The position numbers were made by a program, and so were the translations under genes. The notes below the pieces were generated by a model. That model was not told the DNA's origin and ran no database searches. It worked only from the letters and a program-made list of their open reading frames with translations. From Scenedesmus sp. PABB004 (taxonomy: Eukaryota), in contig JABVCE010000010.1 in assembly GCA_014905635.1 (NCBI GenBank), positions 1,178,001 through 1,242,000 of the forward strand: a stretch of 64,000 nt of DNA, in the 5' to 3' direction. Shown here in pieces: positions 11,526 to 58,828 of this stretch. Position 1 is the first letter of the stretch. Each line of letters begins with the position of its first letter.

Positions 11526-15277
<3,752 letters not shown>

Positions 15278-17603
15278 GCTGGTCCGCCTGTGTTGCTGTG
15301 CGAGCAACCAGCCGGGGCGGCGGGCGTTTTTCGGGCGCGCGCGAGCGCGCCGCGGCGGCGGCGCTGGCGCCGCGTGCCTCCTCGCAGGCACGCGGCGCGC
15401 GCGCGGCCGCGCGTGCGCGCGAGCGGCGCGGCCGGCACACAGGGAGCCCGATGCCTCTCCGCGCCTGGCCGCCCCGCCCGCACACTGCGCGGGCGGGGCG
15501 GGCCGGGCGCGCGGGAGCTGCGCGTACATCTCCAGTCAAAGGCTCTCCGTGAATGCGCTCGACCCCATTGGTTGCTGCACAGCACGCTCGTGCGTGCCCC
15601 CCAGCAAGATCACTTGTTGCATTTGGCGTGGGGCGGGCGCACTTGATCGTCGGCCGGCGTGACGCTGGACGCGCGCCGCCAGGCGCCGCCGCGCGCCGGC
15701 GCGGCGCGCGCGGGCGGGGGCGCAGGGGCGGCGGCCGCAGCGGGCGGCCCCCGGGCGGGGCGGGCGGCGGGGAGGCGTGGCGCGTCGGGCGGCGGCGCGG
15801 CGCCCAATAAGGGCATGGAGGGCGTCGGTTGCGCCGCATTGGCGCACCAGGCCATGGTTCGGGCGGCGCGACTGCCCATGCCTGCGGCGCGCGCGCGCGC
15901 GCCGCGGGCGTTGGGCGGCGGCGCCCTCGCGGCGTGGCTGGGGTGCGCGGCGGCGCGCGGTGTGTGGCGCTACCCGCGGCGCGGCTCGCGGGGCTGGTGG
16001 GCAGCGCGCGTGCGTGCGCGGGGGCCGGACCGGGGGGCGCGCCGCGCGGCGCTCCCCCGAAACCACAACAAGCTCGGAAGCACCAGCTTCCGGCCCCCGG
16101 ACTCGCACTTTGACCCCCGCCCCGGCGGGCGCCGCGGCTCGCGCGCACAGTTTTTTACCTTGCGGCGCGCGACGAAGACGGCGCCGCGGGCCCGCTCCCC
16201 GCATGGCATGCTCCCTCCCTGCGTGTGCTCGCTGTACAGACGTCGTCGCGTGCTTGGGGGCAGGGCAGGGGCCAGGCGGCGGCAGCAGCGTTGCTTAGGT
16301 AGGCGGCAGGGGCGGCGCGCGACGCGCGGGGGCGGCGGCGCGCGCGGGCCGCGAATTGCGCCGCGAGATGCTGGCCCCAGCCCCCTGGCGCTTCCGCGGG
16401 CGCCCCGTCGCGCGCATGCGTGCTGCGTGCGTGCGTGCGAGTCTGGCTGGGCGGTCGCTGCTGCTGCGCCGGCTTGGGCCCTGCGCGGCGTTGGACCTGG
16501 GCAGGCGAACCTCCCGGGCTGGAAATGCCCGTCGGTGCACGCCATGCGGGCGTGCTGCGCGGCCCCGGAGGGGCGCCTGCGCTGGGTGCTGACAGCCCCC
16601 GGGCGCGCGTTGACTGTTAACAGTCACTACTCCTCGAGCGGCGCCGCGCCGGCTGCGCGTCCAGAACTGCGGCGGGCGTGCGGGGCGCGCAGCGCGCTGC
16701 GCGCGGGGCGCGTCGGGACAGCGGCGCGCGGCCGGCCCGGCTGCTGCGAGCCTGCCGCCACCAAGCATGCTGCACCTCTGCGGCGCCGCGCGTGCCAAGC
16801 GCTGCCAGCCGCGCTGGGCGCTGCGAGGGGGCGCGCGAGCGCTGGTCGGGCGCCGCCGCGCGCGCTCGCCGCGCGCAGTTGGGCTGCCCTGCCACGACCC
16901 TGCCGCTGACAGAGCGAGTGACTGTCTGCTGCTGACTCTCAACAGCTGAGTTGGGCTTGAGGATAGGGGGTCCACGTCGGGTCAGGTTTTGTTGGGGTGG
17001 GTTGGTTACTTTGGGCGGCGAGTGCCGCGCGCCGTCACCACCACCCGCTCGCGCGTGCGGCCTGATAAAAAACGGCGCAGCGCAGCCAACCAGCCGCCCC
17101 CCAGAAGGGTGGGCAGGGGAGCTTATTGCAGCCCACGTGCGCGTGTTGCGCGCGCCGCCGTCCGCCGGGACAGCAGCAGGCTATCGTTTGGGCGCCGCGC
17201 TGCCGCGCAAGGCGCAAGCCCATCACCCGGTGTGTTATTGAGCCCATCGCAAGCGCATCAAGGGCAGCTCAAACACATAAGGGAGGCAAAGGCATAAAAG
17301 GCAGGAGCGGGTCGTTCTTCAACAACTAGCTGGCAGCGCAGCGCGCGCAGGCCTCTCGGTTCACGCCGCAGCAGCACGCCCCGCGCCGGCTGCGCCAGGC
17401 AGCAGGGGGCCGCAGGCAGGCGGTGGGGCCAGGTGGCTTGGGAGCCAACGCACTGGCTTATTGCCGCCGCACAAGGCAGGCAGGCAGCCTAGGGTAAGGG
17501 TTGATGCATGTGTGCTTAAGTACAGTGCTACCAGCCTGCTGCGTATGCACAGGGTTGATGGTAAAAACTGAGTACGTAACAGCAGCGCGTGCGCGCGCAG
17601 CGC

Positions 17604-20600
17604 TTAGGCCCAGGTGAAGCTGGCCATGTCGGCGGGGCCGGACGCGTCAGCGCCGTTGGGGCTGACGAAGAAGGAGCGGGCGCCCAGGGTCGCCTCGCCG
17701 CCGCGCAGGGTCCAGCCCTTGGTGGGGACGTAGAGGAAGCCCCAGCACGCGCCGTTGGACATGCACGCGGCCTTGCACGTGGCGTAGCTCTTGCACTCAT
17801 CGACGTCCCACTCGGCGGCGTTGCGGCCAGCCTCCACCAGCAGCGGGTTGGGCGAGGTGCCGACCAGGCCGGCGGCGGCGTCGGTGGCGAACGAGTCGAT
17901 GTCGCACGCGGCAAAGATGCCGGACGCCATGGTCTTGGCGGACACGTCCTTGGACGCGGCGCTGATCTCACTGGGCGGCAGCTTGTAGAACATCTTGGCC
18001 TTGCCGTCCACCGCGGGCGTGGTGGGCGCCAGCAGCGCGTGCTTGCACGACACCACGCCGGAGCCGGCGGTGGTCTCGAGCATCTCGGCGACGCAGCACT
18101 TGTCGGCGGGGCAGGCCGCCAGGCAGGTCGTCACGGTGGTGGCCGCGTTGGCGGTGAACATGCCCGCGGGCAGCGCCAGCACGTCGCCGGCGGGGTTGGC
18201 GAGCTGGGCAAAGCGGGGCACGCACGACTCGGCGCCCTTGAGCGACTTCCTGAAGGTCACGCCGTCGGAGGTGATGGCCTCGCCCACGGGGTCCTGGTAG
18301 GTGGTCGTGGGGCAGGTCATGCAGCTGTCGCTGCTGCCGAGGTTGAACGTGCCGTAGTTGCACGCGCTGCAGGTGCTGCTGCCAGAGGTCTTGCCAAAGC
18401 CAGCCGCGCACACGTCGCAGGTGGCCGCGCCGACGTTGGTGGTGCTGGCACCGCTGGTGCACTGCTGGCACTTGGGGTTGGTGGTGGCAGTGCCCTCCAC
18501 GTCGCCGGCAGAGAAGTAGCCCACGGGGCAGGGCTTGACGCCGGTGCTGGAGGTGGGGTTGGTGGGGTCCCACGGGTTGCTCGCGTCGGCGCTGAACACG
18601 CCGGAGCCGGCGGGCACGATGCAGTCGTCGATCGAGTCCTGCAGGGTGCCGTTGCCGGGGGCGTACGCGGTGGTGCGGCCCTCGGGGCACTTCTCGCACG
18701 GCTCCATGCTCGCGGCGGGCGCCCAGAAGCCGTCGGGGCACTGGTTGGCGCCCTCCGTGGTGTAGCCAAAGCCGCCGGGGTTCTTGCAGTCGTCAAAGCT
18801 GGTCGACGCGGCCGCGGAGTAGAGGTTCTTGGTGCAGGCCTTGCAGGGCGCGTTGATCAGGCCGAACGTGGTGTTGGCAACACCGTAGGTGTTGGCCGGG
18901 CACGGCTTGATGGCCTTGAACGCGGTGAAGTCAGCGGGGTCAAAGGTGATGCCCCAGCCGGCCTTGATGTCTGTGGGTGAGCGGGGCGGGCGCAGGGCGT
19001 GAGCAACAGCGGCGCTGCAGTGCGGGGTCCCCGCGCAGGCAGGCAGCCGAGCAGGCGCGCGCGCGCGCGCGCAGGCAGGGCAGGCCACTCACAGCAAGAG
19101 GCGGAGGTGGCGGCGACCTTGCTGCCCGCGGCAGCGGTGGAGAGCTCGTCGGTCTCGGTCAGGGCGCTGAGGATGCCGGCACCGCACTTGGTGCACACGT
19201 CCTTGCCGTCACCGCTGGTGCTGACCACCTCCTTGAACGCCTTCCAGCCGGCGCGGTAGTAGCCCTCATCCTCGGTGTTGGCGGGCGTGACCGGGCACTT
19301 GACCATCGAGCCGCTGGCGGCGGTGCCGGCCACAAAGTAGCCCGGGGGCACCACGCAGTCGTCGGCCGAGGCGGAGCCGTTCTTGAGCGTGATGGTGCTG
19401 TACGGGCAGGGCTTGCACGACCAGGTGCCGGCGGTGCCGTCGAAGAAGAAGCCGATGGGGCACACCTCCACGGCCGAGGGCACAAAGGTGCTGCTGCTGG
19501 TCACGGGGACGGCCGAGCCGGTGGGCTCAGTGCCGGCGGTCGTGGTGGCGAGCTTGTAGCCGGGCATCAGCACTGCGCGCGCGAGCGGAGGCCGCGGCAG
19601 CAGCACAGTCAGGCTGGGGCCAGCGTCGAGCCGGCGGCGGGCGGCCGCAGCGCGGCAGCCGCGGGCTCCCGGCGCGGCAGCAGCAGCGCGGCACCCACCG
19701 TTGCACTTGTCGATGCCGGTGGAGGCGATGCTGGCGGTGGTCCAGCCCTCGGGGCAGGACAGGCAGTTGATGGCGAGCTTGTTGTCGGTGCGCACAAAGT
19801 TGGAGCGGTAGAGGCCCTTGGGGCAGTCGCGGACAACGTTGAGCTCCCAGAACTTGCCGGGCGGCACCTGGCACACGTCGTTCTTGTTGTCGCGCGTGCC
19901 GTTGTAGCCGGTGGGCGCCGCCAGGCCGGACTGGCACGGCAGGCAGGTCTTGAGGCGGTTCAGGTCGGGCGCGTAGGTGTTGCCAGCGCACTGCTGGGCA
20001 GCGCCGCCGCGGCTGGTGGGGAGCACATAGCCGGCCTGGGCGACTGCGAGAGGGAGGGGCGGGCAGCAGGCGCACGCGGGCGAGTGAGCAGCAGCGCTGG
20101 GCGCGCATGCTGTGCGCGCTGCAGCCCACGCGCGCACAGCAGCAGCAGGCGGTGCAGGCGCGCGCAGGCAGGCAGGCAAGCGGCCACTCACTGCAGTCGG
20201 CGGCGCGGGTGGTCGAGGCGGACTTGGTCGTAAGGCCGACGGAGCCGGTGGGGTTGCAGCTGTTCTGCGCGCCCGCGTCGTCGGTCGGCAGGCGCGCGTT
20301 CTTGTCGCCGCCGGGGCAGTAGGAGCCGGTGGGGCAGGGCGAGCACTGGCGGGTGTTGCCGGTGACGTTCTGGAAGGTGCCGGGCGGGCACACTGCGCGC
20401 AGGCGGCAGGCGGGCGGGCGGGTGAGACGAGGCCGGTGGCGCGCGGCAGACAGGCAGGCAGCCAAGCAGGCAGGCAGGCAGCACCAACCGCCGCCGCGGC
20501 GCAGGCGGGCGGGCGCCCAAGCTCACCGCACTGCACGATGGAGCGGCCGTCGCTGCCGCGGGCGGGCACGTAGCCCTTCATGCAGCGCAGGCACACGTAG

Positions 20601-20785
20601 GTCTCCTTGCTGTCCAGGATGCGGGTGGTGCAACGGCGGGCCGTGCACGCGGGGATCTGGGCCGGGCAAGACACGCCGCTCTGGAGCAGCTGGCGGCTGG
20701 CGGCGCTGCGGCCGGCGGGCGCCGCGGAGGCCAGGGCCGCGAGGCCCAGCAGCAGGACGGCCAGGGTGGCCGTGCGAGCTGCCAT
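17604..20785 (-). CDS. Secreted cysteine-rich repeat protein (CPxGxY/F repeats, GCC2/ephrin-receptor-like type), copy A, 5 exons
   Basis: Signal peptide MAARTATLAVLLLGLAALASA, then RQLLQ. Repeated C-P-x-G-x-[YF] and CxxC modules, four GT-AG introns, no transmembrane segment seen, ends ASFTWA*. Confidence 0.88.
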
Positions 20786-20934
20786 TGCGTCGGTCGGTGA
20801 GCTGAGCGGGCTGCGGCTGTGGCTAGGCCTGGGCTAGGGGGCAAGGCCTTGTTGGAGCTGCTCTCGGTGGGTTGCAGCGGCCACAGGTCAGCAGGCACAG
20901 CGCGGGTTGGCTGTGGGTGGAGGGCGGGCGGCGC

Positions 20935-20940
20935 TATATA
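20935..20940 (-). promoter_or_regulatory. Probable TATA box of Cys-rich gene copy A
   Basis: Isolated TATATA in GC-rich context ~150 bp upstream of ATG 20785; conserved at 52766 in copy C. Confidence 0.6.
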
Positions 20941-22372
20941 GCTCGGGAGCGTCGGGCCGGCGTCGGCGGCCTCCGCCGGACGAGGCCCGCCCTGCTCGCA
21001 GTGCCGAGCATGTGCGAACCCCGGCGACCTCTCTCCCTGGCCGCCGCGGGAGGTTGCGCGAGTCTCCAAAAGCTTATGCACGCCACGCAGATCCCGCCGA
21101 ACGCCCGAGCCGGGCGGCTGGGTGGCGCAGGGCTGCGCGGTGTGCGGCGAACGCAGCTCGGCGAGATTGACGCGGCCCTCTAGGCGCGCCGCGGCCGGCA
21201 CGCCCGGCTCTTAGGTGTTGTGGAGGCGCGATGGAGCGTTTGCGCGCAGCAGAACGGACCCAAGCCGCCTCAGCGCGGAGCAGGCAGTAGTCAGCCCGCC
21301 CCCACCGCCCTGCCGATCACGGGCGGGCGCGCTGGACGGCGGCCAGGCACGGCCACTGCGTGCCAGAGGCGGGGCCAGGCGCTGTGCAGCGCCGTGCACG
21401 CAGCCGAGCGGCGCCGCGCCGGCTGCGCGTCCAGAACTGCGGCGGGCGTGCGGGGCGCGCAGCGCGCTGCGCGCGGGGCGCGTCGGGACAGCGGCGCGCG
21501 GCCGGCCCGGCTGCTGCGAGCCTGCCGCCACCAAGCATGCTGCACCTCTGCGGCGCCGCGCGTGCCAAGCGCTGCCAGCCGCGCTGGGCGCTGCGAGGGG
21601 GCGCGCGATCGCTGGTCGGGCGCCGCCGCGCGCGCTCGCCGCGCGCAGTTGGGCTGCCCTGCCACGACCCTGCCGCTGACAGAGCGAGTGACTGTCTGCT
21701 GCTGACTCTCAACAGCTGAGTTGGGCTTGAGGATAGGGGGTCCACGTCGGGTCAGGTTTTGTTGGGGTGGGTTGGTTACTTTGGGCGGCGAGTGCCGCGC
21801 GCCGTCACCACCACCCGCTCGCGCGTGCGGCCTGATAAAAAACGGCGCAGCGCAGCCAACCAGCCGCCCCCAGAAGGGTGGGCAGGGGAGCTTATTGCAG
21901 CCCACGTGCGCGTGTTGCGCGCGCCGCCGTCCGCCGGGACAGCAGCAGGCTATCGTTTGGGCGCCGCGCTGCCGCGCAAGGCGCAAGCCCATCACCCGGT
22001 GTGTTATTGAGCCCATCGCAAGCGCATCAAGGGCAGCTCAAACACATAAGGGAGGCAAAGGCATAAAAGGCAGGAGCGGGTCGTTCTTCAACAACTAGCT
22101 GGCAGCGCAGCGCGCGCAGGCCTCTCGGTTCACGCCGCAGCAGCACGCCCCGCGCCGGCTGCGCCAGGCAGCAGGGGGCCGCAGGCAGGCGGTGGGGCCA
22201 GGTGGCTTGGGAGCCAACGCACTGGCTTATTGCCGCCGCACAAGGCAGGCAGGCAGCCTAGGGTAAGGGTTGATGCATGTGTGCTTAAGTACAGTGCTAC
22301 CAGCCTGCTGCGTATGCACAGGGTTGATGGTAAAAACTGAGTACGTAACAGCAGCGCGTGCGCGCGCAGCGC

Positions 22373-25121
22373 TTAGGCCCAGGTGAAGCTGGCCATGTCG
22401 GCGGGGCCGGACGCGTCAGCGCCGTTGGGGCTGACGAAGAAGGAGCGGGCGCCCAGGGTCGCCTCGCCGCCGCGCAGGGTCCAGCCCTTGGTGGGGACGT
22501 AGAGGAAGCCCCAGCACGCGCCGTTGGACATGCACGCGGCCTTGCACGTGGCGTAGCTCTTGCACTCATCGACGTCCCACTCGGCGGCGTTGCGGCCAGC
22601 CTCCACCAGCAGCGGGTTGGGCGAGGTGCCGACCAGGCCGGCGGCGGCGTCGGTGGCGAACGAGTCGATGTCGCACGCGGCAAAGATGCCGGACGCCATG
22701 GTCTTGGCGGACACGTCCTTGGACGCGGCGCTGATCTCACTGGGCGGCAGCTTGTAGAACATCTTGGCCTTGCCGTCCACCGCGGGCGTGGTGGGCGCCA
22801 GCAGCGCGTGCTTGCACGACACCACGCCGGAGCCGGCGGTGGTCTCGAGCATCTCGGCGACGCAGCACTTGTCGGCGGGGCAGGCCGCCAGGCAGGTCGT
22901 CACGGTGGTGGCCGCGTTGGCGGTGAACATGCCCGCGGGCAGCGCCAGCACGTCGCCGGCGGGGTTGGCGAGCTGGGCAAAGCGGGGCACGCACGACTCG
23001 GCGCCCTTGAGCGACTTCCTGAAGGTCACGCCGTCGGAGGTGATGGCCTCGCCCACGGGGTCCTGGTAGGTGGTCGTGGGGCAGGTCATGCAGCTGTCGC
23101 TGCTGCCGAGGTTGAACGTGCCGTAGTTGCACGCGCTGCAGGTGCTGCTGCCAGAGGTCTTGCCAAAGCCAGCCGCGCACACGTCGCAGGTGGCCGCGCC
23201 GACGTTGGTGGTGCTGGCACCGCTGGTGCACTGCTGGCACTTGGGGTTGGTGGTGGCAGTGCCCTCCACGTCGCCGGCAGAGAAGTAGCCCACGGGGCAG
23301 GGCTTGACGCCGGTGCTGGAGGTGGGGTTGGTGGGGTCCCACGGGTTGCTCGCGTCGGCGCTGAACACGCCGGAGCCGGCGGGCACGATGCAGTCGTCGA
23401 TCGAGTCCTGCAGGGTGCCGTTGCCGGGGGCGTACGCGGTGGTGCGGCCCTCGGGGCACTTCTCGCACGGCTCCATGCTCGCGGCGGGCGCCCAGAAGCC
23501 GTCGGGGCACTGGTTGGCGCCCTCCGTGGTGTAGCCAAAGCCGCCGGGGTTCTTGCAGTCGTCAAAGCTGGTCGACGCGGCCGCGGAGTAGAGGTTCTTG
23601 GTGCAGGCCTTGCAGGGCGCGTTGATCAGGCCGAACGTGGTGTTGGCAACACCGTAGGTGTTGGCCGGGCACGGCTTGATGGCCTTGAACGCGGTGAAGT
23701 CAGCGGGGTCAAAGGTGATGCCCCAGCCGGCCTTGATGTCTGTGGGTGAGCGGGGCGGGCGCAGGGCGTGAGCAACAGCGGCGCTGCAGTGCGGGGTCCC
23801 CGCGCAGGCAGGCAGCCGAGCAGGCGCGCGCGCGCGCGCGCAGGCAGGGCAGGCCACTCACAGCAAGAGGCGGAGGTGGCGGCGACCTTGCTGCCCGCGG
23901 CAGCGGTGGAGAGCTCGTCGGTCTCGGTCAGGGCGCTGAGGATGCCGGCACCGCACTTGGTGCACACGTCCTTGCCGTCACCGCTGGTGCTGACCACCTC
24001 CTTGAACGCCTTCCAGCCGGCGCGGTAGTAGCCCTCATCCTCGGTGTTGGCGGGCGTGACCGGGCACTTGACCATCGAGCCGCTGGCGGCGGTGCCGGCC
24101 ACAAAGTAGCCCGGGGGCACCACGCAGTCGTCGGCCGAGGCGGAGCCGTTCTTGAGCGTGATGGTGCTGTACGGGCAGGGCTTGCACGACCAGGTGCCGG
24201 CGGTGCCGTCGAAGAAGAAGCCGATGGGGCACACCTCCACGGCCGAGGGCACAAAGGTGCTGCTGCTGGTCACGGGGACGGCCGAGCCGGTGGGCTCAGT
24301 GCCGGCGGTCGTGGTGGCGAGCTTGTAGCCGGGCATCAGCACTGCGCGCGCGAGCGGAGGCCGCGGCAGCAGCACAGTCAGGCTGGGGCCAGCGTCGAGC
24401 CGGCGGCGGGCGGCCGCAGCGCGGCAGCCGCGGGCTCCCGGCGCGGCAGCAGCAGCGCGGCACCCACCGTTGCACTTGTCGATGCCGGTGGAGGCGATGC
24501 TGGCGGTGGTCCAGCCCTCGGGGCAGGACAGGCAGTTGATGGCGAGCTTGTTGTCGGTGCGCACAAAGTTGGAGCGGTAGAGGCCCTTGGGGCAGTCGCG
24601 GACAACGTTGAGCTCCCAGAACTTGCCGGGCGGCACCTGGCACACGTCGTTCTTGTTGTCGCGCGTGCCGTTGTAGCCGGTGGGCGCCGCCAGGCCGGAC
24701 TGGCACGGCAGGCAGGTCTTGAGGCGGTTCAGGTCGGGCGCGTAGGTGTTGCCAGCGCACTGCTGGGCAGCGCCGCCGCGGCTGGTGGGGAGCACATAGC
24801 CGGCCTGGGCGACTGCGAGAGGGAGGGGCGGGCAGCAGGCGCACGCGGGCGAGTGAGCAGCAGCGCTGGGCGCGCATGCTGTGCGCGCTGCAGCCCACGC
24901 GCGCACAGCAGCAGCAGGCGGTGCAGGCGCGCGCAGGCAGGCAGGCAAGCGGCCACTCACTGCAGTCGGCGGCGCGGGTGGTCGAGGCGGACTTGGTCGT
25001 AAGGCCGACGGAGCCGGTGGGGTTGCAGCTGTTCTGCGCGCCCGCGTCGTCGGTCGGCAGGCGCGCGTTCTTGTCGCCGCCGGGACAGTAGGAGCCGGTG
25101 GGGCAGGGCGAGCACTGGCGG
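22373..25121 (-). pseudogene. 5'-truncated copy B of the Cys-rich gene (no promoter, no signal-peptide exon)
   Basis: Near-identical to copy A from mid-exon 2 (RQCSPCPTG) to the stop; upstream sequence is unrelated and no nearby in-frame ATG was seen. Confidence 0.8.
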
Positions 25122-25713
25122 CATGTTTCGCACGGTTGCAGCCGCTTGGCGCTTGGTGCACGCGCCAAGCGGCCCCCAGCCGCGCTGGGCGCTGCGCGCG
25201 CTGGTCGTCCGCCGCCGCGCGCGCTGGTCGCCGTGCGTTTGTCGCCAGGCCTGCCGCAGGCCGCTGGCGAGACGGCCGAAGGCCGGCAAATTCAATCAGA
25301 ACGCCGCACCGGCGACAGGGCGCGCTGCTGCCGCCGGCGGCAGCACAACCGCAGCCCGCAGAGGCGGCGGCCGCCGCAGCGCCCAGGGCGCTGCGCCGCG
25401 CACGGAAAACGCGCGCCGGGCTGTCTTGACGCGGGTGAAGCATCGCGCGGCGCGCGAAGGACGCGAAGAAGACTGTCGCCCCCGGGTTCGCCCGGGGGTC
25501 GCCCCAGGTCGCGCGCACCCACTCTCCCGACTCTCCCGTCTCGCGCCGCCCGCCCCACAAGCTGCGCCACAGCACGCCAGGGCCGCGAAGCACGCCCCCA
25601 GAGCTGGACCCCCACCGCAGCGACGCTCCTCTGCCTCCAGACCTCGCGGCCTGCCGCGGCCTCCCCCGACCCCCACAGCCAATGGGCGGCCGCTGAAGCG
25701 GCTCCCAGCCGCC

Positions 25714-28700
25714 ATGCGGGATGTGATGGGGCTCTGGCTGCTGGCGCTGCTCCTGGCGGCGCCCGTGCTGGGCTCCGGCGCGGAAGCCAACGCGTCCATC
25801 ACGCCCCCGGCGCCGGAGCCCGCGGGCGGGGCGCGCGCGCTGCTGCAGAGCGGCGTGTCCTGCGCGCCCCAGATCCCCGCCTGCACGGCGCGGCGCTGCA
25901 CCACCCGCATCGTGGCCAACAAGGAGACATACGTCTGCCTGCGCTGCAAGCCGGGCTACGTGCCCGTGCTCGGCGCCGACCGGCGCAGCATCGTGCAGTG
26001 CGGTGAGTCCCGGGCGCACAGCGCCCAGCGCGCAGCCCGGCGCCGGCGGCGGCTTTGCGGGCGCGCCAGGCAGCGGCGCCGCGCGCAGGTGATGCCGCGC
26101 GTCGTTCGCTCACGCGCGCCCCTCGCCCCCGCCCGCCGCAGTCTGCCCGCGAGGGCTGTGGGAGTCGCCGGTCACCAACAGCTGTGTGGAGTGCGGGCGC
26201 GGCTTCACGTGCGCGGGCGGCGACCGCGCCGCGACGCGGCCGAGCGACGACCGCGGCAGCCGGCGGGCCTGCAACCCAAAGGACACCGTCGGGCTGACCA
26301 CAGTCAGCACGCGCGCCACTGCGCTCAGCGAATGCGGTGGGTGCCCGCGGCGGCGCGCGGCTGCGGCGCAACGGCTCCCAGCGCGCGGGCGGCCGCCGCT
26401 GACCCCCACCCCCTCTGCCCTCTCCGCAGTCGCGCTCGCGGGGTATGCGCTGCCGCGCGCGACTGGCATGGCGGCGGTGGAGTGCCCCGCCAGCACCTAC
26501 ACGCCGGCGCTCAACCGGCTGAGGTCCTGCCTCCCCTGCCAGTCGGGCCTCAGAGAGGACCCAGCGTTCACTGCGAGCGGCACGCCGCGCGGCAGCCGCA
26601 CAGATGTGTGCAGTGAGTGGCACCGCGGCGCGGCGCGCCGGGCCGCCGCCGCAGCCCGCCGCCCGGCGCGGCGCGCGACACGGCGCGGCGTGCGCTCACC
26701 CCGCGCCGCGCGCGCTCGCAGAGGTGCCGCCCGGCAAGTTCTGGGAGCTCAACGTCGTCCGCGACTGCCCCAAGGGCCTCTACCGCGAGGGCTTTGCCAA
26801 CACCACGGACGCGGCAGCCATCCGCTGCCTCTCCTGCCCCGAGGGCTGGACCACGTCCGGCACGGCCGCCACGTCCGTGCTCGCCTGCAACCGTGAGCGC
26901 CCCGCGCCCCGCACGCGCCCGCCGGCGCCGCCGCCGTCCGCCCCGCGCGCGCGCAGCGGGCTCACGCATGTCTGCCCTCCCCCACACCGCCCGCAGGGCT
27001 GCTGCCCGGCTTCAAGGTGACGTCCCTGGAGGCCGGCGGCCAGCCGGGCCTCGCCCAGGAGGACTCCATCCTTGGCTCGCCGACGGAGGCCTGCCCGCTC
27101 GGCTTCTACTTTGACGGCGCGCCCGGGACCTTTGGCTGCCAGCGCTGCCCCTTTGGCACGGTCACGCGCGAGCGCGGCACCGAGAGCGCCAACGACTGCC
27201 TCGTGCCGCCCGGCTACTACGTGCAGGCGCCGCCCGGCGAGGCGCCGCGCCTCGCCAAGTGCCCCACCAACGTCACCGCCGCCGCCGACGGCCCGCCCAG
27301 CGGCTTCTACCGCACCGGCTGGGTGCCGCCCACGCCGGCCGTGATGGACGCCGACGGCACAAAGGCGTGCACGCCGTGCGGGGTCGGCATCCTCAGCAAG
27401 TGGGCCGACCCAGACGAGCAGACCGACGTCGCGGTGCTGCGGGCCACCGCGGTCAACGGCACCGGCGAGGCCGCCGCCGCGGCTGCGGCCGCCGTGGCGA
27501 GCGCCAGCGCCCAAGACCCGGGGTATGGCTGGGTCGCGAGCTCCTCCGCCTCTTGCTGTGAGTCGCGCCGCCCGCCGCGCGCCGCATGCCGCGCGTCGCG
27601 GCCCGCACGCCCCTGGGCAGCGTGTCCGCCGCTGTCTGTCACTCATGCCCTGCGCGCGCCCCGCTCACCCACAGACATCAAGGCCGGCTGGGGCATCACG
27701 TTTGACCCCGCTGACTTCAGCAAGCTCCGCGCGGTCATCCCCTGCCCCGCCAACACCTACGGCGTCGCCGGCGACACGTTCGGCCTCTACCTCATGCCCT
27801 GCAAGGTGCGCGCCCTGCAGCCCCGCCGCCCGCAGTTGGCACAGCACGCGCAGCCGGCCGCGCGCGCCGCCGCGGCCGCGCCGCCGCGGCGCCGCGCGCC
27901 TCGCGCCGGCGCAAAGCGCCGACGCCGCCCGCCTGCCCGCGCCGCCGCGCAGTCGTGCACCAAGAACCTGAAGTCGGCGCCCGGCTCCAGCTCCGCCGCC
28001 GACTGCAAGAACCCCGCCGGCTTTGGCTACACCTCGGAGGGCGCCAACCAGTGCCCCGACGGCTTCTGGGCGGCCGCGGCGAGCATGGACCCGTGCGAGC
28101 CGTGCCCCGAGGGGCGGTACACTGACTACTTCCCCGGCGACGGGCAGTACCAGTCGTCGATCGATTCCTGCAAGGCACGCAGCGCCCGCCCGCCCGCAGC
28201 CCCGCCGGCCGCCGCGGCGCCCGCCACGCGCTGGCGCACGCGTGTTTGTTGTCCGGCTCACCCCGCCCCGCGGCGCGCGCGCAGGTGCCCAAGGGCTATG
28301 GCGTGTTCAACGGCCTCGCGGACGACCCCTGGGCGCCCGAGGCGCCCAGCGCGTCCATGGGCGTGCGGCAGTGCCCCGACGGCTTCTCCAGCCCCGGCGA
28401 CCAGGAGCTTGGGGGCAACACGAGCAACCCCGTGTGCACACGCTGTGCCGCGGGCTCCGCCACGTCCGGCCCCGGCGCCGAGAGCTGCAACGGTGAGCGC
28501 GCGCGCGCAGCACGGCCGGCGCCCGCGTGCGCTGGCCTGCCGCGCCGCCGCCGCCGCGCCGCCGCCGCCGCGCCGCCTCACCCCGCCCGCCGCCGCCGCG
28601 TGCGCAGTGTGCATGGCCGGCTGGGGCGGCCCGCCCGGCGCGTGCGCGGTGTGCCCGCGCAACACCTACCAGCCCGGCGCCGAGTGGGGCGACGGCTCGA

Positions 28701-29725
28701 CGTGCCGCCCCTGCCCCAGGACGGTGTGGAACCACAACGTCGGCGACGCGGTGACCAGCTACGGCATCACCTTTCACGACGGCTCGCCCACGCCCTACAT
28801 GTGCGTCCCACGCTACTCGCAGACCGCCAAGCCCGCGGGCGACCGGCTCGCGCTGCCAGACAGCATGTTCCGCGCCGTGCCGGGCGCGACCGACCCCGGC
28901 GCGTGCGCGGCGGCGTGCCCGCGCGACGCGTGCTGCGTGGCCGAGTTTGACGCCGAGTTTGGGTCGGGCTGCCGCCACGCGGTGCTGCCGGCGGCGAGCC
29001 CCGCGTCGGTCGTCGCGTCGGTCAGCGCCGGCGCCGACGCGCCGCGGCTCTACTACAAGCTCCCGCCCAGCGACCTCATCGCGGCGGCCAGCATCGGCAA
29101 CGGCAGCGCGCTCGCCGGCCGCGTGACCGCCAAGTCGGCGGCTGCGCCCGGCAACGCGACCGCGCCGCCGCTGAGCCGCGTCGAGGCCAAGACCTGGGCG
29201 TCGGGCGTCTACGCGGTGTGCGACCTCAGCGCGTACGCGGACGAGGCCGCCGGCGGCTGGATCGGCACCTCGCCCGACCCCTACATGGTCGAGGCGGGGC
29301 GAGACGCGATCGAGTGGGACGTGCCGGGGCTGTGCGCGGGCGAGTCGGAGTGCCAGCGCTCGTGCGCGGCGAGCTCGTCGTGCTGGGGCTTCCTCTACGT
29401 CCCCGGCAAGGGCTACGCGCTGCGCACGGGCGAGGTCGCGATCGCGGTGCGCACGTTCTTCGTGAGCCCCGACCCCGAGACGCCGCTGCCGGCGCCGCCC
29501 ACGACGCTGCCGGACCCCAGCGGCGACGCGGCGCCGGACCCCAGCGGCGACGCGGCGCCGGCGCCCGCTGGCGACACGGCGCCGACGCCCGCCGGCGACC
29601 CGCAGCCGGCCCCCAGCGGCGACCCGGCCGCCGGCAACGGCAGCGCCGACGCTGGCGCGCCGGCGGCCGGGCCGGTAGTGCAGGACCCGGCGCTCGACGG
29701 CAGCCTCGCCTCGCCCTCGCCCTGA
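25714..29725 (+). CDS. Diverged paralogue D of the secreted Cys-rich protein, with Pro/Asp/Gly-rich C-terminal tail, ~9 exons
   Basis: Signal peptide MRDVMGLWLLALLLAAPVLG, RALLQSGVSCAPQIPACTARRCTTRI, VPPGKFWELNVVRDCPKGLYR, DIKAGWGITFDPADF, YKLPPS, CWGFLYVP shared with copy A; tail of PDPSGDAA-like repeats. Confidence 0.88.
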
Positions 29726-30427: not shown

Positions 30428-31661
30428 TCACGGCCCGCCCCCGCCAGCGTCGGCATCTGGCAGGCCGAAGAACGCGCGCGCGACGGCGCTGGTCCGCGCC
30501 GCGACCGCCGCCTCGTCCTGCCCCAGCGCCGCCGCGACCGCGGACAGCACGTGCGGCAGCAGCGCCGGCTCGTTGCGGCTCGGCCGCGCCTTGGACGGCG
30601 TGATGCTGCGCGGCACGAGGTAGGGCGCGTCCGTCTCGATCATGAGCCGGTCGGGCGGGATGCGCGGCAGCAGCGCCGCGAGCTCCGCGCCGCCGCGCTC
30701 GGGCGGTCGTCCGCGATCCACCCCGTGATGCCGATGCAGAGCCCCAGGTCGAGGCACGCGGCCAGCTCGTCGCCGTTGCCTGTGAAGCAGTGCAGCACGC
30801 CGCGCACGCCCGCGGGGCCGCCCACGTCCGCGCCGCGCAGAATCTCCGCGAAGCGCGCGCCCGCGTCGCGGCAGTGCATGAAGAGCGGCTTGCGCAGCTC
30901 CAGCGCGAGCGCGACCTGCGCCTCGAACCAGCGCTCCTGCACGTCCGGCGGGCTGAAGTTGCGGTTGAAATCCAGCCCGCACTCGCCTGCCGCCGGCGGC
31001 GCGCGGCGGCGGTGCGGCGCGCGGCGGTGGCGCGGCGCGCGGCGTCGGCGCGGCGTCGGCGCGGTGGGGGCGCCGCCCGCGCCGGGCGCGCCGGGCGCGC
31101 ACCGATCGCGACGCAGCGCGGGTGGCACGCGAGGTCGCGCAGCGCGTCGAGCGTCGCGCCGTCGCAGTCCTTGGCGTTGTGCGGGTGCACGCCGGCGGTG
31201 AAGTAGAGGGGGTAGCCGGCCTCGGCCTCGCACAGCGCGCGCGCCGCGCGCGCCGAGGCCACGGTGCAGCCAGTCACCACGATTGCGGCCACGCCCGCCT
31301 CGCGCGCGCGCGCGATCACCGTGTCGCGGTCCTGCCGGCGGCCGGTGCGCGCGCGTGGGCGGGCGGCGGTCGGCCGGCGGCGGTGGCGCGCGCTGCAGCA
31401 GCCCCCCCGCGGGCCGGGCGGTGGGGTCCCGGTCGGGCGCGCCTTGTCAAAGGCGCCGTCCACGAGGTTGACGCCAACGTCTATCAGCGGCACGGGCGAC
31501 CGCCGGAGCTGCGCTGCGACCAGCTCGCCCTGGGAGAGCTTCGCCTTGGTCATCACGCCGCTGCTGCGGCGCACCGGCGAGCGGACCGAGCCCTGGAGCG
31601 GGCTCCGCAGCAGCAGCAGCGAGCGTATGAGCGAGCCCTGGCGCGCGCTCCGCAGCAGCAT
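30428..31661 (-). CDS. TATD: TatD-family DNase (spliced); apparent 1-nt frameshift near 30700
   Basis: [73 protein letters not shown]-terminal extension looks like a targeting peptide. Confidence 0.92.
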
Positions 31662-45680: not shown

Positions 45681-47672
45681 ATGGCGCACGCGCGCCCGAG
45701 GAGCGCCCCTCGTCCGCCGGGCCCTCCTCGCACGCCCGCCGCGCGCCGGGACCGCACTGGCGGCCGAGGTGGGGGGCGATGCGCCAGCCTGGCCCCATCC
45801 GCCACGCGCCGGCCTCAGCGTCGCGTCGCGGCGAGAGACGCGCGGGGCCAGCGCGCTCACAGCACCGCCGCCGCCGCAGGACGGGCGGCAGCCGCCCGCG
45901 TCGGCGCCGCCGCCGCTCCACGCCTGGCCGGCGCCGCCGGCGGAGCACGACGTGGAGCTGCGGCTGACCGTGCGCTACGCGGCCGACCCCGGCCAGGCGA
46001 TCGCGGTGCTGGGCAGCCACCAGGGGTGGTGCGCCGCGAACGCGGCGCGCATGACCGCCGGCCCCGGCGACGTCTGGAGCGTGGTGCTGCCGCTGCGCGC
46101 CGGGTGCGCCGCCGCGGCGCCGCGGCGCCGCGGCGCCGCGGCCCGCCCCTCCCGCGCGGCGCCCGCAGCGGCGCATTGCCGCCGCGCCCGCCCCGCCCGA
46201 CGCCGCCGCCGCCCGGCGCGCCCCGCCGCCGCCCGCGCCGCCGCCGCCGCCCGCGCCGCTGCAGGTGCGAGGTAGAGTACAAGTATGTGCTGCTCGACGC
46301 GGGCGGCGCCGTGTCGCGCTGGCAGGAGGGCTACAACAACACGATCTGCCTGCGCGGCGGCGCGTACGTGCACGTCGCAGACTCGTGGGGCCACGAGGCG
46401 CGCGAGGTGCACGAGGTCGCCCTGCCGCGCCCGCCGCCCGCGGTCACGCAGCGCGCGGTGGGCAGCGCCGCCGGCGGCGGCGGCGGCGGCGGCGCGCCGC
46501 AGCACGCCGTGCCCGGCTTCAGCATGCGCGGCGGCACGCAGTGGCCCGGCGGTGACCGCGCCGCGCTGGAGCAGCCGGCTCGGCTGGAGCAGCCGGCGGA
46601 CGCGGCGCCCGCGCCCGCGGCGGCGGCGGCGGCCGCGCTCGAGGCGGCCCCGCTGCCGGCGGCCCCGCCCGCCGCGGCAGCCACGGTGGTGCAGCCGCAG
46701 GCGCCGCAGCCTGGCCCGCCGCGAGACGCGGTCGCCGCCAGCCTGGCGCAGCAGGAGCAGCTGGCCCAGGAGGTGGCGGGCTTGCTGCCGTTGCTGCAGG
46801 CCGAGCTGCAGGCGGCGCTCACCGCGCTGGCGGGCAGCGGCCCTGGCGCCGGCGGTGACGAGGCGGCAGCAGTGTTTGCCGAGGGCCGCGCCGTGCTGGA
46901 TGCGCTGCAGCAGCAGCTGCGCGCCGCCGGCGGCCCCGGCCCGGCGGCCGCGGCGCCCGCGGCGGCGAGCCCCGCGCCCGGCGCGGGCGCCAGCGGCCGC
47001 TGCACGCCCGGGTTGTCGCTGGCCACAGCGTCAGAGGATGAGATCGCGGCCGCGCTGCTGAGCGACGACTGCGAGGAGGCGTGCGCGTGCCTGTGCGACG
47101 CGCTGGGGCGCTGCATGTCGTGCGCCTGCAGCGACGACGACGAGGAGTGCGACCTGGAGGCTGGACCCCATGGCCACAGCCACGCGCACCCGCAGCCGGC
47201 GGCGGCGGCGCCCCCGCCCCCGCGCGCCCTGGCGGCGGCCGCGGCGCCCCAGCCGGCTGCTGCTGCGGCGGCGGCGGCGGCGCCCCAGCCAGCGGCGGCA
47301 GCGGCCCCGGCCCGGCCGGCGCCCCGCCCCGCGGCGCATGCACAGGCGGAGGCGATGACGGCGGAGGCGATTGCGGCCACGCACCCGCAGGCGGCGACGC
47401 AGCTGCGGCACCTGGGCGCCGCGGTCGCGGCCGCGACGGCCGCCGCCGCCGCCGCCTCGCGGGAGCAGGAGGCCGTCCGCGGCGCGCTGGAGCTGCAGCC
47501 CGCCGCGCGAGAGGCGGCGGCCACGGCGGCGCTGCTCGGCGTGCAGCAGGCGCTCAAGGCGTCGTCGGAGCTGCTCGACGCGCTGGCCGACCCCTCCCAC
47601 CCCCTCATCCTCCAGGCCGACCGCGAGCTGGCAAACGCCAAGGGCCAGCTCGGCCGGCTGCTGTCCGCCTGA
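45681..47672 (+). CDS. Starch-binding CBM20-domain protein with low-complexity C-terminal region (5' exon structure approximate)
   Basis: VELRLTVRYAADPGQAIAVLGSHQGW...MTAGPGDVWSVVLPL.AG/EVEYKYVL...VSRWQEGYN is a CBM20 signature; no catalytic domain recognised. Confidence 0.8.
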   Translation: MAHARPRSAPRPPGPPRTPAARRDRTGGRGGGRCASLAPSATRRPQRRVAARDARGQRAHSTAAAAGRAAAARVGAAAAPRLAGAAGGARRGAAADRALRGRPRPGDRGAGQPPGVVRRERGAHDRRPRRRLERGAAAARRVRRRGAAAPRRRGPPLPRGARSGALPPRPPRPTPPPPGAPRRRPRRRRRPRRCRCEVEYKYVLLDAGGAVSRWQEGYNNTICLRGGAYVHVADSWGHEAREVHEVALPRPPPAVTQRAVGSAAGGGGGGGAPQHAVPGFSMRGGTQWPGGDRAALEQPARLEQPADAAPAPAAAAAAALEAAPLPAAPPAAAATVVQPQAPQPGPPRDAVAASLAQQEQLAQEVAGLLPLLQAELQAALTALAGSGPGAGGDEAAAVFAEGRAVLDALQQQLRAAGGPGPAAAAPAAASPAPGAGASGRCTPGLSLATASEDEIAAALLSDDCEEACACLCDALGRCMSCACSDDDEECDLEAGPHGHSHAHPQPAAAAPPPPRALAAAAAPQPAAAAAAAAAPQPAAAAAPARPAPRPAAHAQAEAMTAEAIAATHPQAATQLRHLGAAVAAATAAAAAASREQEAVRGALELQPAAREAAATAALLGVQQALKASSELLDALADPSHPLILQADRELANAKGQLGRLLSA

Positions 47673-50082: not shown

Positions 50083-51861
50083 GTGTGGTCCAAGCCTGGA
50101 CCGCGCACGGCGCCCGCCGCACAGCTCGCCCACGGCTCCAGAGTCAGCCCCCCACCTGCTCGCGCGTCGCGACGGGACCAGGGCGTGCGCGCAGCAGCAG
50201 CAGCAGCAGAGGCGCAGGCGGTTGGCGCCCGCCCGCCGCAACCGGCTGAGCGGAGCCCGCTCAGCGCCCGTGCAGCCCGGCCGGGACCCGCCGGGGGCAC
50301 GCCCCAGCGGCACCAGCGGCCGCAGCGGCTGCCCCAGCGCGCGGCGGTCGGCGCGCGAGCGCACGCCGCGGAGCCCGCCACGCTGGACTGGGACGGCGGC
50401 GGCGACGGGCTCGACGGCGAGGGCGACGGCCTCGAGCTGACCGCGGGGCTGTGGTTTCTGCGCCAGCAGCGCCGGGCGGAGCAGGAGCAGCGCCGGGCGG
50501 CGACAGCGGCGGCGCAGGAGCAGCGCGCGACGGCGATGCACGCGCAGCAGCCCCACCACCCGGCGCCGCCGCCCCCGGGGCAGGCCCCCGGCGCGCAGCC
50601 CCTGCCGCCGCCGCCCGGGGCGGCCGCCGCGCCGGCGGCGCCGCCGCGGCCGAGCGCGAGCCAGCTGCCGGCCGAGGGCGAGCTGCCGACGCTCAACGGC
50701 CTGCTCGGCCACGGCCCCGATGTGGCGGCGGAGGGCGCGCTGCCGCCGGCGCCGCCCCGCCAGGCGCGCGAGCGCGGCGCCGCCGCCAAGGCGCCCGTGC
50801 CGCCCGAGGCGGCGCTGGGCGGCCTGCTGGCGCTGACGGGCAGCCTCGTGTCCTACGCCATCGTGCGCCTCAAGAGCGGCAAGCGCGTGCGCCATCTCAA
50901 AGGTGGCAGCGCTGCGCACGAGCGGCCGGCCGCTCTCGCGCGCGCGTGCGCGCGTGCGCGCGAGCTCACGCGCGCGCGCCGGCCGCCGCCCGCAGAGGAG
51001 CTGCAGGAGGCCAAGCAGCAGCTGGCGGGCCTGCAGGAGGCCGACGCGCGCCGGCGGCAGCTGGAGGCCGAGCTCGCGGCGTCGCGCGTGAACCTCGAGT
51101 CGACCACAACCGAGCTGGAGGCGGCGCGCTCGGCGGCGCGCAAGCTCGAGTGCGCGGGGCGCGCAGCCCGCGCGGCGCGGCGCTGCGCTCTTGGGAGGGG
51201 GGGGGGGCAGCTGCTGCGCTGGCGCCGGCGGCGCCCGGTGCGGCTCACGCGCTCCGGCTCATGCGCCGTCCGCCGCTCCGCGCGCCCGCTGCAGGGGCGA
51301 CAAGCTGGCGGTGCAGGACCAGCTGCAGAGCGTGAGTGCCAGCCAGCATCAGGCCAAGGCGGCGGCGGAGAGGCGGCTGGCGGAGGCCGACCGCGCGCGG
51401 CACGAGGCGGAGCTTCGTTGGCGCAAGGCCTACGACGAGCTCGAGGCGGCGCACACGGAGCTTGAGAACGTGAAGTGAGTTGCCGCGGCAGCGTGGCCCG
51501 GTGGCGCGCGCCGCGGCCCGTAGCCGCGCGCGTCGTGCCACGCGCTGCGCCCGCCGTCGCCGTCGCTGCCGCGCCCGGCCCGCTGCCACCGCCCAGGGGC
51601 GAGCTGGGCCTGCGCGGCAGCCAGCTGGAGGGGCTCACCCGCGAGCTTGAGTTCACGCGCAGGTGCGTGTCATGCGCGCGCCCAAGTGCTGATGTGCGCC
51701 GGCGCCCCTTGCTGCCGGCCGCGCCCCGAGCGCGGCTGTGTGCGCTGGCGCTCCGCAGGCAGCTGGCGGAAGCGGAGAAGCGCGTGGAGCGGGCCCAAAT
51801 GGAGGGCCGCTCGGCGCGAGCGGGGGGTTACTCCAGCGGAGAGTACGACGCCTGGGACTGA
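50083..51861 (+). CDS. Hypothetical protein with one hydrophobic segment and a coiled-coil C-terminus (spliced; start unresolved)
   Basis: ALGGLLALTGSLVSYAIVRL followed by heptad-rich exons (EELQEAKQQLAGLQEAD..., ELGLRGSQLEGLTRELEF) with intron signals; ends YDAWD*. Confidence 0.55.
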
Positions 51862-52036: not shown

Positions 52037-52237
52037 GCCAGCGGCAGGGTCGTGGCAGGGCAGCCCAACTGCGCGCGCGGCGGCGCCCGGCCAGCGCTCG
52101 CGCGCCCCCTCGCAGCGCCCAGCGCGGCTGGCAGCGCTTGGCACGCGCGGCGCCGCAGAGGTGCAGCATGCTTGGTGGCGGCAGGCTCGCAGCAGCCGGG
52201 CCGGCCGCGCGCCGCTGTCCCGACGCGCACAGAGCGC
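52037..52237 (+). repeat. Direct repeat R, upstream of Cys-rich gene copy C
   Basis: GCCAGCGGCAGGGTCGTGGCAGGGCAGCCCAACTG...GCTGTCCCGACGCGCACAGAGCGC; recurs at 56836-57044 and, inverted, at ~16702-16908 and ~21472-21678. Confidence 0.9.
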
Positions 52238-52765
52238 AGCGCGCTGCGCGCCCCGCACGCCCGCCGCAGTTCTGGACGCGCAGCCGGCGCGGCGCCGCTC
52301 GGCTGCGTGCACGGCGCTGCACAGCGCCTGGCCCCGCCTCTGGCACGCAGTGGCCGTGCCTGGCCGCCGTCCAGCGCGCCCGCCCGTGATCGGCAGGGCG
52401 GTGGGGGCGGGCTGACTACTGCCTGCTCCGCGCTGAGGCGGCTTGGGTCCGTTCTGCTGCGCGCAAACGCTCCATCGCGCCTCCACAACACTTAAGAGCC
52501 GGGCGTGCCGGCCGCGGCGCGCCTAGAGGGCCGCGTCAATCTCGCCGAGCTGCGTTCGCCGCACACCGCGCAGCCCTGCGCCACCCAGCCGCCCGGCTCG
52601 GGCGTTCGGCGGGATCTGCGTGGCGTGCATAAGCTTTTGGAGACTCGCGCAACCTCCCGCGGCGGCCAGGGAGAGAGGTCGCCGGGGTTCGCACATGCTC
52701 GGCACTGCGAGCAGGGCGGGCCTCGTCCGGCGGAGGCCGCCGACGCCGGCCCGACGCTCCCGAGC

Positions 52766-52771
52766 TATATA
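52766..52771 (+). promoter_or_regulatory. Probable TATA box of Cys-rich gene copy C
   Basis: TATATA ~150 bp upstream of ATG 52921. Confidence 0.6.
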
Positions 52772-52920
52772 GCGCCGCCCGCCCTCCACCCACAGCCAAC
52801 CCGCGCTGTGCCTGCTGACCTGTGGCCGCTGCAACCCACCGAGAGCAGCTCCAACAAGGCCTTGCCCCCTAGCCCAGGCCTAGCCACAGCCGCAGCCCGC
52901 TCAGCTCACCGACCGACGCA

Positions 52921-55900: not shown

Positions 55901-56143
55901 CCGCTGCTGGTGGAGGCTGGCCGCAACGCCGCCGAGTGGGACGTCGATGAGTGCAAGACCTACGCCACGTGCAAGGCCGCGTGCATGTCCAACGGCGCGT
56001 GCTGGGGCTTCCTCTACGTCCCCACCAAGGGCTGGACCCTGCGCGGCGGCGAGGCGACCCTGGGCGCCCGCTCCTTCTTCGTCAGCCCCAACGGCGCTGA
56101 CGCGTCCGGCCCCGCCGACATGGCCAGCTTCACCTGGGCCTAA
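52921..56143 (+). CDS. Secreted cysteine-rich repeat protein, copy C (full length, 5 exons)
   Basis: Same protein as copy A except for visible D/N (CPADK vs CPANK) and S/T (CKSY vs CKTY) changes; introns at ~53180-53313, 53515-53671, 54017-54176, 54658-54776; stop TAA 56141-56143. Confidence 0.9.
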
Positions 56144-56835
56144 GCGCTGCGCGCGCACGCGCTGCTGTTACGTACTCAGTTTTTACCATCAACCCTGTGC
56201 ATACGCAGCAGGCTGGTAGCACTGTACTTAAGCACACATGCATCAACCCTTACCCTAGGCTGCCTGCCTGCCTTGTGCGGCGGCAATAAGCCAGTGCGTT
56301 GGCTCCCAAGCCACCTGGCCCCACCGCCTGCCTGCGGCCCCCTGCTGCCTGGCGCAGCCGGCGCGGGGCGTGCTGCTGCGGCGTGAACCGAGAGGCCTGC
56401 GCGCGCTGCGCTGCCAGCTAGTTGTTGAGGAACGACCCGCTCCTGCCTTTTATGCCTTGCCTCCCTTATGTGTTTGAGCTGCCCTTGATGCGCTTGCGAT
56501 GGGCTCAATAACACACCGGGTGATGGGCTTGCGCCTTGCGCGGCAGCGCGGCGCCCAAACGATAGCCTGCTGCTGTCCCGGCGGACGGCGGCGCGCGCAA
56601 CACGCGCACGTGGGCTGCAATAAGCTCCCCTGCCCACCCTTCTGGGGGGCGGCTGGTTGGCTGCGCTGCGCCGTTTTTTATCAGGCCGCACGCGCGAGCG
56701 GGTGGTGGTGACGGCGCGCGGCACTCGCCGCCCAAAGTAACCAACCCACCCCAACAAAACCTGACCCGACGTGGACCCCCTATCCTCAAGCCCAACTCAG
56801 CTGTTGAGAGTCAGCAGCAGACAGTCACTCGCTCT

Positions 56836-57044
56836 GCCAGCGGCAGGGTCGTGGCAGGGCAGCCCAACTGCGCGCGGCGAGCGCGCGCGGCGGCGCCCGA
56901 CCAGCGCTCGCGCGCCCCCTCGCAGCGCCCAGCGCGGCTGGCAGCGCTTGGCATGCGCGGCGCCGCAGAGGTGCAGCATGCTTGGCGGCAGGCGCGCAGC
57001 AGCCGGGCCGGCCGCGCGCCGCTGTCCCGACGCGCACAGAGCGC
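56836..57044 (+). repeat. Direct repeat R, downstream of Cys-rich gene copy C
   Basis: Diverged match to 52037-52237 (two indels and a few substitutions). Confidence 0.9.
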
Positions 57045-58813: not shown

Positions 58814-58828
58814 GGCTGTTTGAAACCT

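Follow-up and report, generated by a model that had tools for sequence, protein, structure and literature searches.

Tandem gene arrays expand and homogenise through unequal crossing-over and gene conversion, and recombination between direct repeats around a gene, as at yeast loci flanked by long terminal repeats (LTRs) or other repeats, gives extrachromosomal circular DNA (eccDNA) or tandem amplification. The 'serial translocation' of KIT in cattle is reportedly a case of yet another class, circle-mediated segmental duplication. Chicote et al. (2020, PMC7450558) describe such duplications in humans, where the blocks are permuted and the junctions show microhomology. The locus discussed below belongs to the very GC-rich green alga Scenedesmus sp. 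PABB004 and has something in common with each of these. It lies in a stretch of 64,000 nucleotides (assembly GCA_014905635.1, contig JABVCE010000010.1, positions 1,178,001 to 1,242,000), which as a whole is called the window, and it consists of an array with 1.78 periods of a 4.77-kb unit carrying the gene HT031_003715, and of a further copy of that unit, copy C, that is inverted relative to the array. We tentatively favour the view that array and copy C were both excerpted, without a transposon, from a single periodic template, and that either locus, or some third source, may have been the older.

Coordinates were obtained from a self-BLAST and a repeat search of the window, and exon positions from mapping the annotated proteins back exactly. 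A direct repeat of about 200 nt, R, occurs once in the unit and at both ends of copy C. The parts of the duplication are:

16635 to 21404, minus strand: array unit 1, one complete 4.77-kb period, comprising the entire gene with its promoter and 3' flank, and R_outer with a further 64 nt from the promoter side.
21405 to 25121, minus strand: array unit 2, covering 0.78 period at 99.92% identity to unit 1; its gene copy starts 41 nt into exon 2, with promoter, exon 1 and intron 1 missing.
17604 to 20785, minus strand: full gene HT031_003715, 883 aa, with exons at about 20785-20528, 20393-20193, 20043-19700, 19573-19094 and 18970-17607 (exact mapping of the annotated proteins).
52037 to 57044, plus strand: copy C, 1.04 periods, with R_up, the promoter, the gene (ATG at 52921, stop codon ending at 56143), the 3' flank and R_down; 26.9 kb from the array and inverted.

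The array as a whole (16635-25121) has a period of 4770/4769 nt, and the segment 16635-20352 of unit 1 matches unit 2 over 3718 columns at 99.919% identity, with one gap and three differing positions. Read on the minus strand, it begins within exon 2 of the outer gene copy (25162-24962, cut at 25121, with 41 nt missing) and continues with the 3' end of that copy, R (21678-21469), the promoter, the five-exon gene (20785-17607), R once more (16908-16699) and a promoter-side tail. This is the order that an earlier note on the stretch had claimed, and exon mapping bears it out, with a tail of 64 nt where about 70 had been given. Aligned with copy C in inverted orientation, 16699-21678 pairs with 57044-52039 at 98.45% and with 60 gap positions, and 21469-25121 pairs with 57044-53354. 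The ATG is separated from R by 683 nt on its upstream side, and the stop codon from R by 692 nt on its downstream side. The array and copy C are circularly permuted relative to each other and each exceeds one period; the earlier description of a permuted array of about 1.8 units, inverted relative to copy C and head-to-head with an older paralogue, agrees with the self-BLAST. The chance of an 8.5-kb match at 98-99.9% identity is negligible, and the duplication is confirmed as real in the assembled sequence; it appears to be recent and of a fairly ordinary kind. As the outer copy is cut inside exon 2, the array is not a simple in-place duplication of the intact gene.

With the circle-mediated segmental duplications of PMC7450558, the locus shares permuted blocks, junctions without long homology, one microhomology junction and the absence of a transposon. 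It differs from them in that both copies are longer than one period, so that a chromosomal tandem array explains the permutation equally well and permutation is not exclusive to circles. Furthermore, no single-period donor in ancestral order is identified for this duplication, and the unit measures 5 kb instead of tens to hundreds of kb. In the manner of tandem arrays, the locus has head-to-tail units that are 99.92% alike, an older neighbouring paralogue, a mosaic paralogue on another contig and a divergence that is higher at the edges of homology. In contrast to such arrays, the outer unit is cut in exon 2 beside unrelated DNA, and the sister copy is dispersed, inverted and 27 kb off; because of this cut and this dispersed inverted sister, in-place unequal crossing-over alone cannot give the layout. 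The order R, gene, R at copy C and the single R per unit at the array joint are reminiscent of direct-repeat recombination systems, but a hybrid joint is not demonstrated here, since the array alleles are ancestral where they can be read and the joint has private changes. Finally, direct repeats of 201 and 209 nt around a 4.6-kb body give copy C a certain likeness to an LTR retrotransposon, whereas it is without TG..CA termini, target-site duplication and domains of reverse transcriptase (RT), integrase or gag, and its body is a host gene with four introns. All the mechanism classes involved are already described.

The copies of R, and an R-like relic near the outer end of the array, are the following:

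16699 to 16908, minus strand: R_outer, the repeat of the array's 3' end, beyond which 64 nt of array remain up to 16635.
21469 to 21678, minus strand: R_inner, the tandem joint between 3' flank and promoter, with one private base (21609) relative to R_outer.
52037 to 52237, plus strand: R_up, 201 nt, with a private 11-nt deletion and a private G in CCCGGCC.
56836 to 57044, plus strand: R_down, 209 nt, with a private T in GGCATGC, one TGG lost and a private G in GGCGCGC.
25158 to 25231, minus strand (the array orientation): R-like relic, 37-110 nt outside the truncated array end, identical at 64 of 86 positions, with a 12-nt gap.

R_up and R_down are 92% identical when gaps are counted. In the four-way alignment of R, from which the alleles were read, they differ at five places: an 11-nt indel and A/G on the left, and C/T, a TGG indel and T/G on the right. 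On the left, both array copies agree with R_down at the two sites (11-nt insert, CCCGACC); on the right, they agree with R_up at all three (GGCACGC, the extra TGG and GGCTCGC), which amounts to a single allele switch in each. Private to both array copies are a T at R position 2 and, near the right end, CCCGC where both C copies have ACAGA. All alleles quoted in the earlier note are present in this alignment, including the last-mentioned difference, which it had entered as a caveat; the T at position 2 was not in its list. The private changes are star-like over three R lineages, with two events in the upstream repeat of C, three in the downstream repeat and two (four substitutions) in the array. 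Under independent private mutations, the sorted order, in which the two R_up changes all lie to the left of the three R_down changes, is one of ten possible orders. Both indel markers fall within short tandem duplications and are slippage-prone, and one metagenome relative is without 6 nt at the TGG site, so that such markers can recur.

The relic makes it possible to polarise part of these differences. R was searched against the window by BLAST with standard scoring, permissive scoring being swamped by the GC-rich background. The relic is the best match to R apart from the copies themselves (59.9 bits, against 43.7 bits for the next best), and it holds the only exact non-copy match of at least 20 nt in the window, a 21-mer at 25176-25196. 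Another R-like match, downstream of the paralogue P described below (30443-30532, 34.6 bits), was dropped because it is within the background. Used as an outgroup, the relic has the 11-nt segment, the A and the C, so that the array allele is ancestral at three of the five marker sites, the other two being outside the relic. The odd states at the three polarised markers would be private mutations of R_up or R_down. As the array shares only ancestral states at the covered sites, these give no information on descent from either C repeat. It seems moderately secure, judging from the alignment, that at the three covered markers the array copies have no derived state in common with either of them. 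The relic also has C at R position 2, and the T of the array would, tentatively, be derived.

R is also the part of the unit in which the array and copy C have diverged most. Outside R, they differ by seven substitutions and five indels in 4548 aligned positions (0.15% substitutions); inside R, there are 6 substitutions in 208 and 6 in 209 positions, the range taken for R_up being 52037-52244, that is, R plus 7 nt (Fisher p about 9e-6 against 7/4548 in the body). This puts the divergence of R at about 19 times that of the remaining unit. Next to R, a single substitution is found in the promoter (about 680 nt) and another single one in the 3' flank (about 690 nt); the excess is therefore specific to R and not general to non-coding DNA. 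The array copies of R carry a private load of two events (four substitutions), where 0.3 substitutions or 0.55 events are predicted in 209 nt at the rate of the body.

The differences in the body were polarised by comparison with environmental relatives. For this, Logan contigs from four runs (X1, X3, X5 and X7), of which three were metagenome DNA and one a metatranscriptome, were placed, at a likeness of at least 90%, on 20353-27000, a stretch chosen to avoid the 3.7-kb internal repeat. Run X1 agrees with copy C at about six of the differences (near 24935; 24355, 24351, 22873, 22087 and 22059) and with the array at three or more: it is without the 7-nt insertion at 24862 and without the 2-nt gap at 23841, and it has array letters at 24124 and/or 22557. 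At the 34-nt indel its form is intermediate, with 6 nt. At 22087 and 22059, run X3 departs from X1 and agrees with the array. Since C alleles and array alleles both occur in environmental relatives, both allele sets are real and both lineages have changed, and no direction of donation follows. The differences private to unit 2 at 25085 and 21872 disagree with all covering relatives, and are either very recent changes or polishing errors. A join of 25121 back to 20353, found in all four runs, was set aside as merely the way in which an intact exon 2 appears on 20353-27000. One X3 metagenome contig joins 25374 and 20689 with six other letters between them, and the relative from which it comes may have a different arrangement between the upstream region of P and exon 1 of the unit.

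Since both of these paralogous loci hold more than one period of the same 4.77-kb sequence, their template would have to be periodic: a tandem array, or a circle that was copied for longer than one round. The reading that we lean towards, while regarding it as tentative, is a copy-and-paste segmental duplication of the 4.77-kb gene unit from such a tandem or circular (rolling) template. An excerpt of 1.78 periods starting in exon 2 would have given the array, an excerpt of 1.04 periods starting in R would have given copy C, and end joining, non-homologous or with microhomology, would have linked each of them to flanks unrelated to it. The two R copies of C would then reflect terminal redundancy, 1.04 periods being slightly more than one, and R need not have existed beforehand as a substrate for recombination. 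Once the loci had separated, gene conversion between these inverted copies could have kept the 4.5-kb body near-identical, while about 200 nt at the homology edges of copy C, which correspond to R, may have escaped conversion and retained an older divergence. Such an excess in R is to be expected if conversion tracts need flanking homology, and the mosaic paralogue HT031_000008 makes exchange in the gene family plausible. In this presumed order of events, the two array units would have been separated or homogenised most recently.

A number of observations speak against this reading. It needs an extra assumption, either homogenisation of the body or a hypermutable R. Under a single rate without conversion, R_up and R_down, with three substitutions and two indels between them, have diverged too far (P about 0.004 for the substitutions), and this excess favours R copies that are older than the split between the array and copy C, as the earlier note assumed; with older R copies, the array-private changes in R are then also too numerous. 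The sorted order of two sites on the left and three on the right has a chance of 0.1, while a crossover predicts it. No periodic source besides the array itself is seen in the window. Moreover, the relic is only about 75-86% identical, so that single-site polarity calls may be wrong, and its position beside the array end is left unexplained. The tandem joint and both outer junctions are known from the assembly only.

The earlier note had instead taken copy C, with pre-existing direct repeats, as the donor. A crossover between R_down and R_up would give a 4.8-kb circle (or a tandem), which would be multimerised or rolled, cut open in exon 2 and at a point 64 nt beyond R, and reinserted 27 kb away in inverted orientation. 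The allele switch in both array copies of R would be its direct result, with an order that is certain under a crossover; the divergence between R_up and R_down, greater than that of the body, fits repeats older than the transfer; and the permutation and the absence of transposon domains and of target-site duplications are all compatible with it. Permuted order with microhomology junctions is, besides, the signature of circle-mediated segmental duplication given in PMC7450558. Nevertheless, we regard this account as rather doubtful. The array is ancestral at the three polarisable markers and shares no derived state with either parental half, both indel markers are slippage-prone, and the array R carries the excess of private changes given above. 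A donor that keeps the gene and both R copies also implies that the circle derived from a sister copy, and neither the relic beside the array nor the origin of the two R copies is accounted for, whereas a 1.04-period excerpt of a periodic template yields the two copies automatically. The proposal that the array R is a recombinant of the C repeats, resting on five sites in a one-in-ten order, is for these reasons not demonstrated, and neither is copy C as donor, since the relic and the environmental relatives give no direction and copy C is itself 1.04 periods long. The note had also allowed that, should no allele switch be found, copy C could be simply a 1.04-unit excerpt; a switch is seen, and yet the excerpt still fits at least as well. 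The interpretation in the note thus finds support in part. Amplification of a secreted-protein gene without a transposase agrees with the lack of transposon domains and target-site duplications and with the signal-peptide-like N-terminus, but the circular origin is not proven. An elaborated form, in which recombination between the 0.2-kb direct repeats gives a gene-bearing 4.77-kb circle that undergoes rolling amplification and transposase-free reinsertion, with the relic and a nearby palindrome marking a preferred, R-guided or break-prone landing site, is in our judgement unlikely.

Template switching without a free circle, of the type of microhomology-mediated break-induced replication (MMBIR) or fork stalling and template switching (FoSTeS), could give the same 1.78-period permuted product with hybrid-looking repeat joints. 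A broken end at the array locus would prime in exon 2 of C, copy to R_down, slip to R_up, copy a second round, slip again and rejoin its home locus after 64 nt. The 8-nt microhomology at one junction of the family fits such a process, and the unique palindrome and a short hairpin, 10-20 nt outside the array ends, could be break-prone sites, although GC-rich hairpins are common here, with 6 pairs in 700 nt. This scenario would, however, place two independent switches within one and the same interval of 64 nt in R, and differing switch points are not seen; the T and the CCCGC that are private to the array and present in both joints point instead to one ancestral joint that was later duplicated. 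With the same polarity problem as the circle, template switching appears quite improbable. It could also be imagined that the tandem was made by the assembler, the array locus truly having one copy or a partial copy. The metagenome contigs do break at R, and among those listed none bridges 25121/25122 or the whole R_inner joint; the units differ at only 3 of 3718 positions, and the relatives match unit 1 at two of these, which is compatible with polishing errors. Against this, the contig that surrounds the locus is 1.27 Mb long, in an assembly of 77 contigs; the truncation in exon 2 and the end at R plus 64 nt are specific junctions with unique flanks, and array-type alleles also occur in environmental relatives. 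Both units share five indels and seven substitutions relative to copy C, so that the array locus is distinct from C. An artefact of this kind is very improbable.

The surroundings of the two loci contain the following features:

16612 to 16625, no strand: perfect 14-nt palindrome, unique in the window (1 match; 0.01 expected), 10 nt outside the array end at 16635.
25714 to 29722, plus strand: older paralogue P, HT031_003717, 1025 aa, head-to-head with the truncated array copy and aligning in exons only, at 67-84%.
57037 to 59550, no strand: inverted repeat abutting copy C, with arms at 57037-57784 and 58828-59550 (86% identical, about 0.75 kb), a spacer of about 1 kb and a 4HBT thioesterase open reading frame (ORF) at 57631-58461 (plus strand).

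The last 8 nt of R_down at its right end (CAGAGCGC) are shared with the outer end of the second arm of the inverted repeat next to it, and the site is a microhomology breakpoint. The inverted repeat itself looks like an inverted partial gene duplication and not a transposon; a protein atlas look-up of the 519-aa ORF in it gave sub-threshold matches only. Insertion of copy C into a once-longer arm of this repeat was considered and rejected, as the sequence to the left of copy C gives no continuation of the arm (best match 41 bits, with background matches reaching 49). No long homology was found at 16635, 25121 or 52037, and no target-site duplication at either locus when these three positions and the right end of C were examined. 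Transposon-type domains (transposase, RT, integrase or gag) are found in 0 of the 35 ORFs in and around the units. All four introns are kept in the gene, which sets it apart from a retro-copy. Readings as an LTR element or a Helitron-type element were discarded, since the termini are wrong, there is no target-site duplication and the enzymes were not found. A simple inversion was likewise discarded: reasoning from the BLAST coordinates, undoing either possible single inversion gives no seamless junction or array. A 15-nt hairpin lies 20 nt outside 25121. To the left of the array, at 14292-14719, GC-rich DNA contains an imperfect tandem repeat with an offset of about 164 nt and 81% identity over 273 columns.

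The long frame on the minus strand of the array has a translation that is 100% identical to HT031_003715 of Scenedesmus sp. PABB004, which is encoded on a contig of 1,269,045 nt. This protein matches Ephrin_rec_like (PF07699) in three stretches, with 66.7 bits against a gathering cut-off of 23.1, and its N-terminus resembles a signal peptide; the gene appears to encode a cysteine-rich secreted or extracellular protein. Homologues occur in Scenedesmus and Tetradesmus. A PAN-like C-terminus remains below threshold, PAN_2 being matched only in paralogue P (17 bits against 21.1). In metatranscriptome contigs from an environmental run, intron 1 (134 nt) and intron 3 (126 nt) are spliced out, which supports the gene model and indicates expression in the PABB004 alga or a close relative. 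The 90% cluster of HT031_003715 also contains HT031_003716, KAF8063868 (named 'Tropomyosin', 1159 aa) and one metagenome-derived fragment. The KAF8063868 model joins five upstream exons (50536-51825) to copy C from 52927 onwards and is probably a gene-model fusion, because copy C has its own ATG at 52921. The HT031_003716 annotation assigns to the truncated array copy a first exon at 25443-25411 that looks spurious. HT031_000008, a paralogue on another contig of the same assembly, is a mosaic with respect to the array protein, being identical at 149 of 150 positions over aa 151-300, 85-90% alike over aa 300-550 and about 50% beyond aa 550; this pattern suggests that the genome contains, at some other place, either one more partial copy or a tract of ectopic conversion. 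A metagenome scan with the protein gave one locus of 2966 nt at 57% identity, too short for gene order.

The G+C content is 72-82% across the whole window, and the table in PMC12571836 lists the assembly with 39.8 Mb, 77 contigs, an N50 of 1.3 Mb, 78.5% GC and 1.31% repeats. An Rfam scan of the window gave 0 matches to structured RNAs. Its sole tRNA gene, for tRNA-Ser (anticodon CGA; 46585-46672, minus strand), lies in the 27-kb spacer between the inverted gene copies, far from the units. An ORF at 59887-60786 has a match to the VIT family of vacuolar iron transporters (55 bits).

From a methodological point of view, the locus serves as a warning that 'hybrid' repeats should not be inferred from a few unpolarised sites. 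The contrast between a homogenised body and diverged edges of 200 nt illustrates how conversion can erase both the age and the direction of a duplication. If the version with a circle and a preferred landing site were true, R would be a minimal 'mobilisation module' for a secreted-protein gene. The two 5-kb inverted repeats bracket 27 kb and could drive recurrent inversion and gene conversion. With three near-identical copies of a gene for an extracellular cysteine-rich protein, one of them truncated, the locus would, if its layout is real, be a clean and very young instance of gene-family growth without transposons in a streamlined alga.

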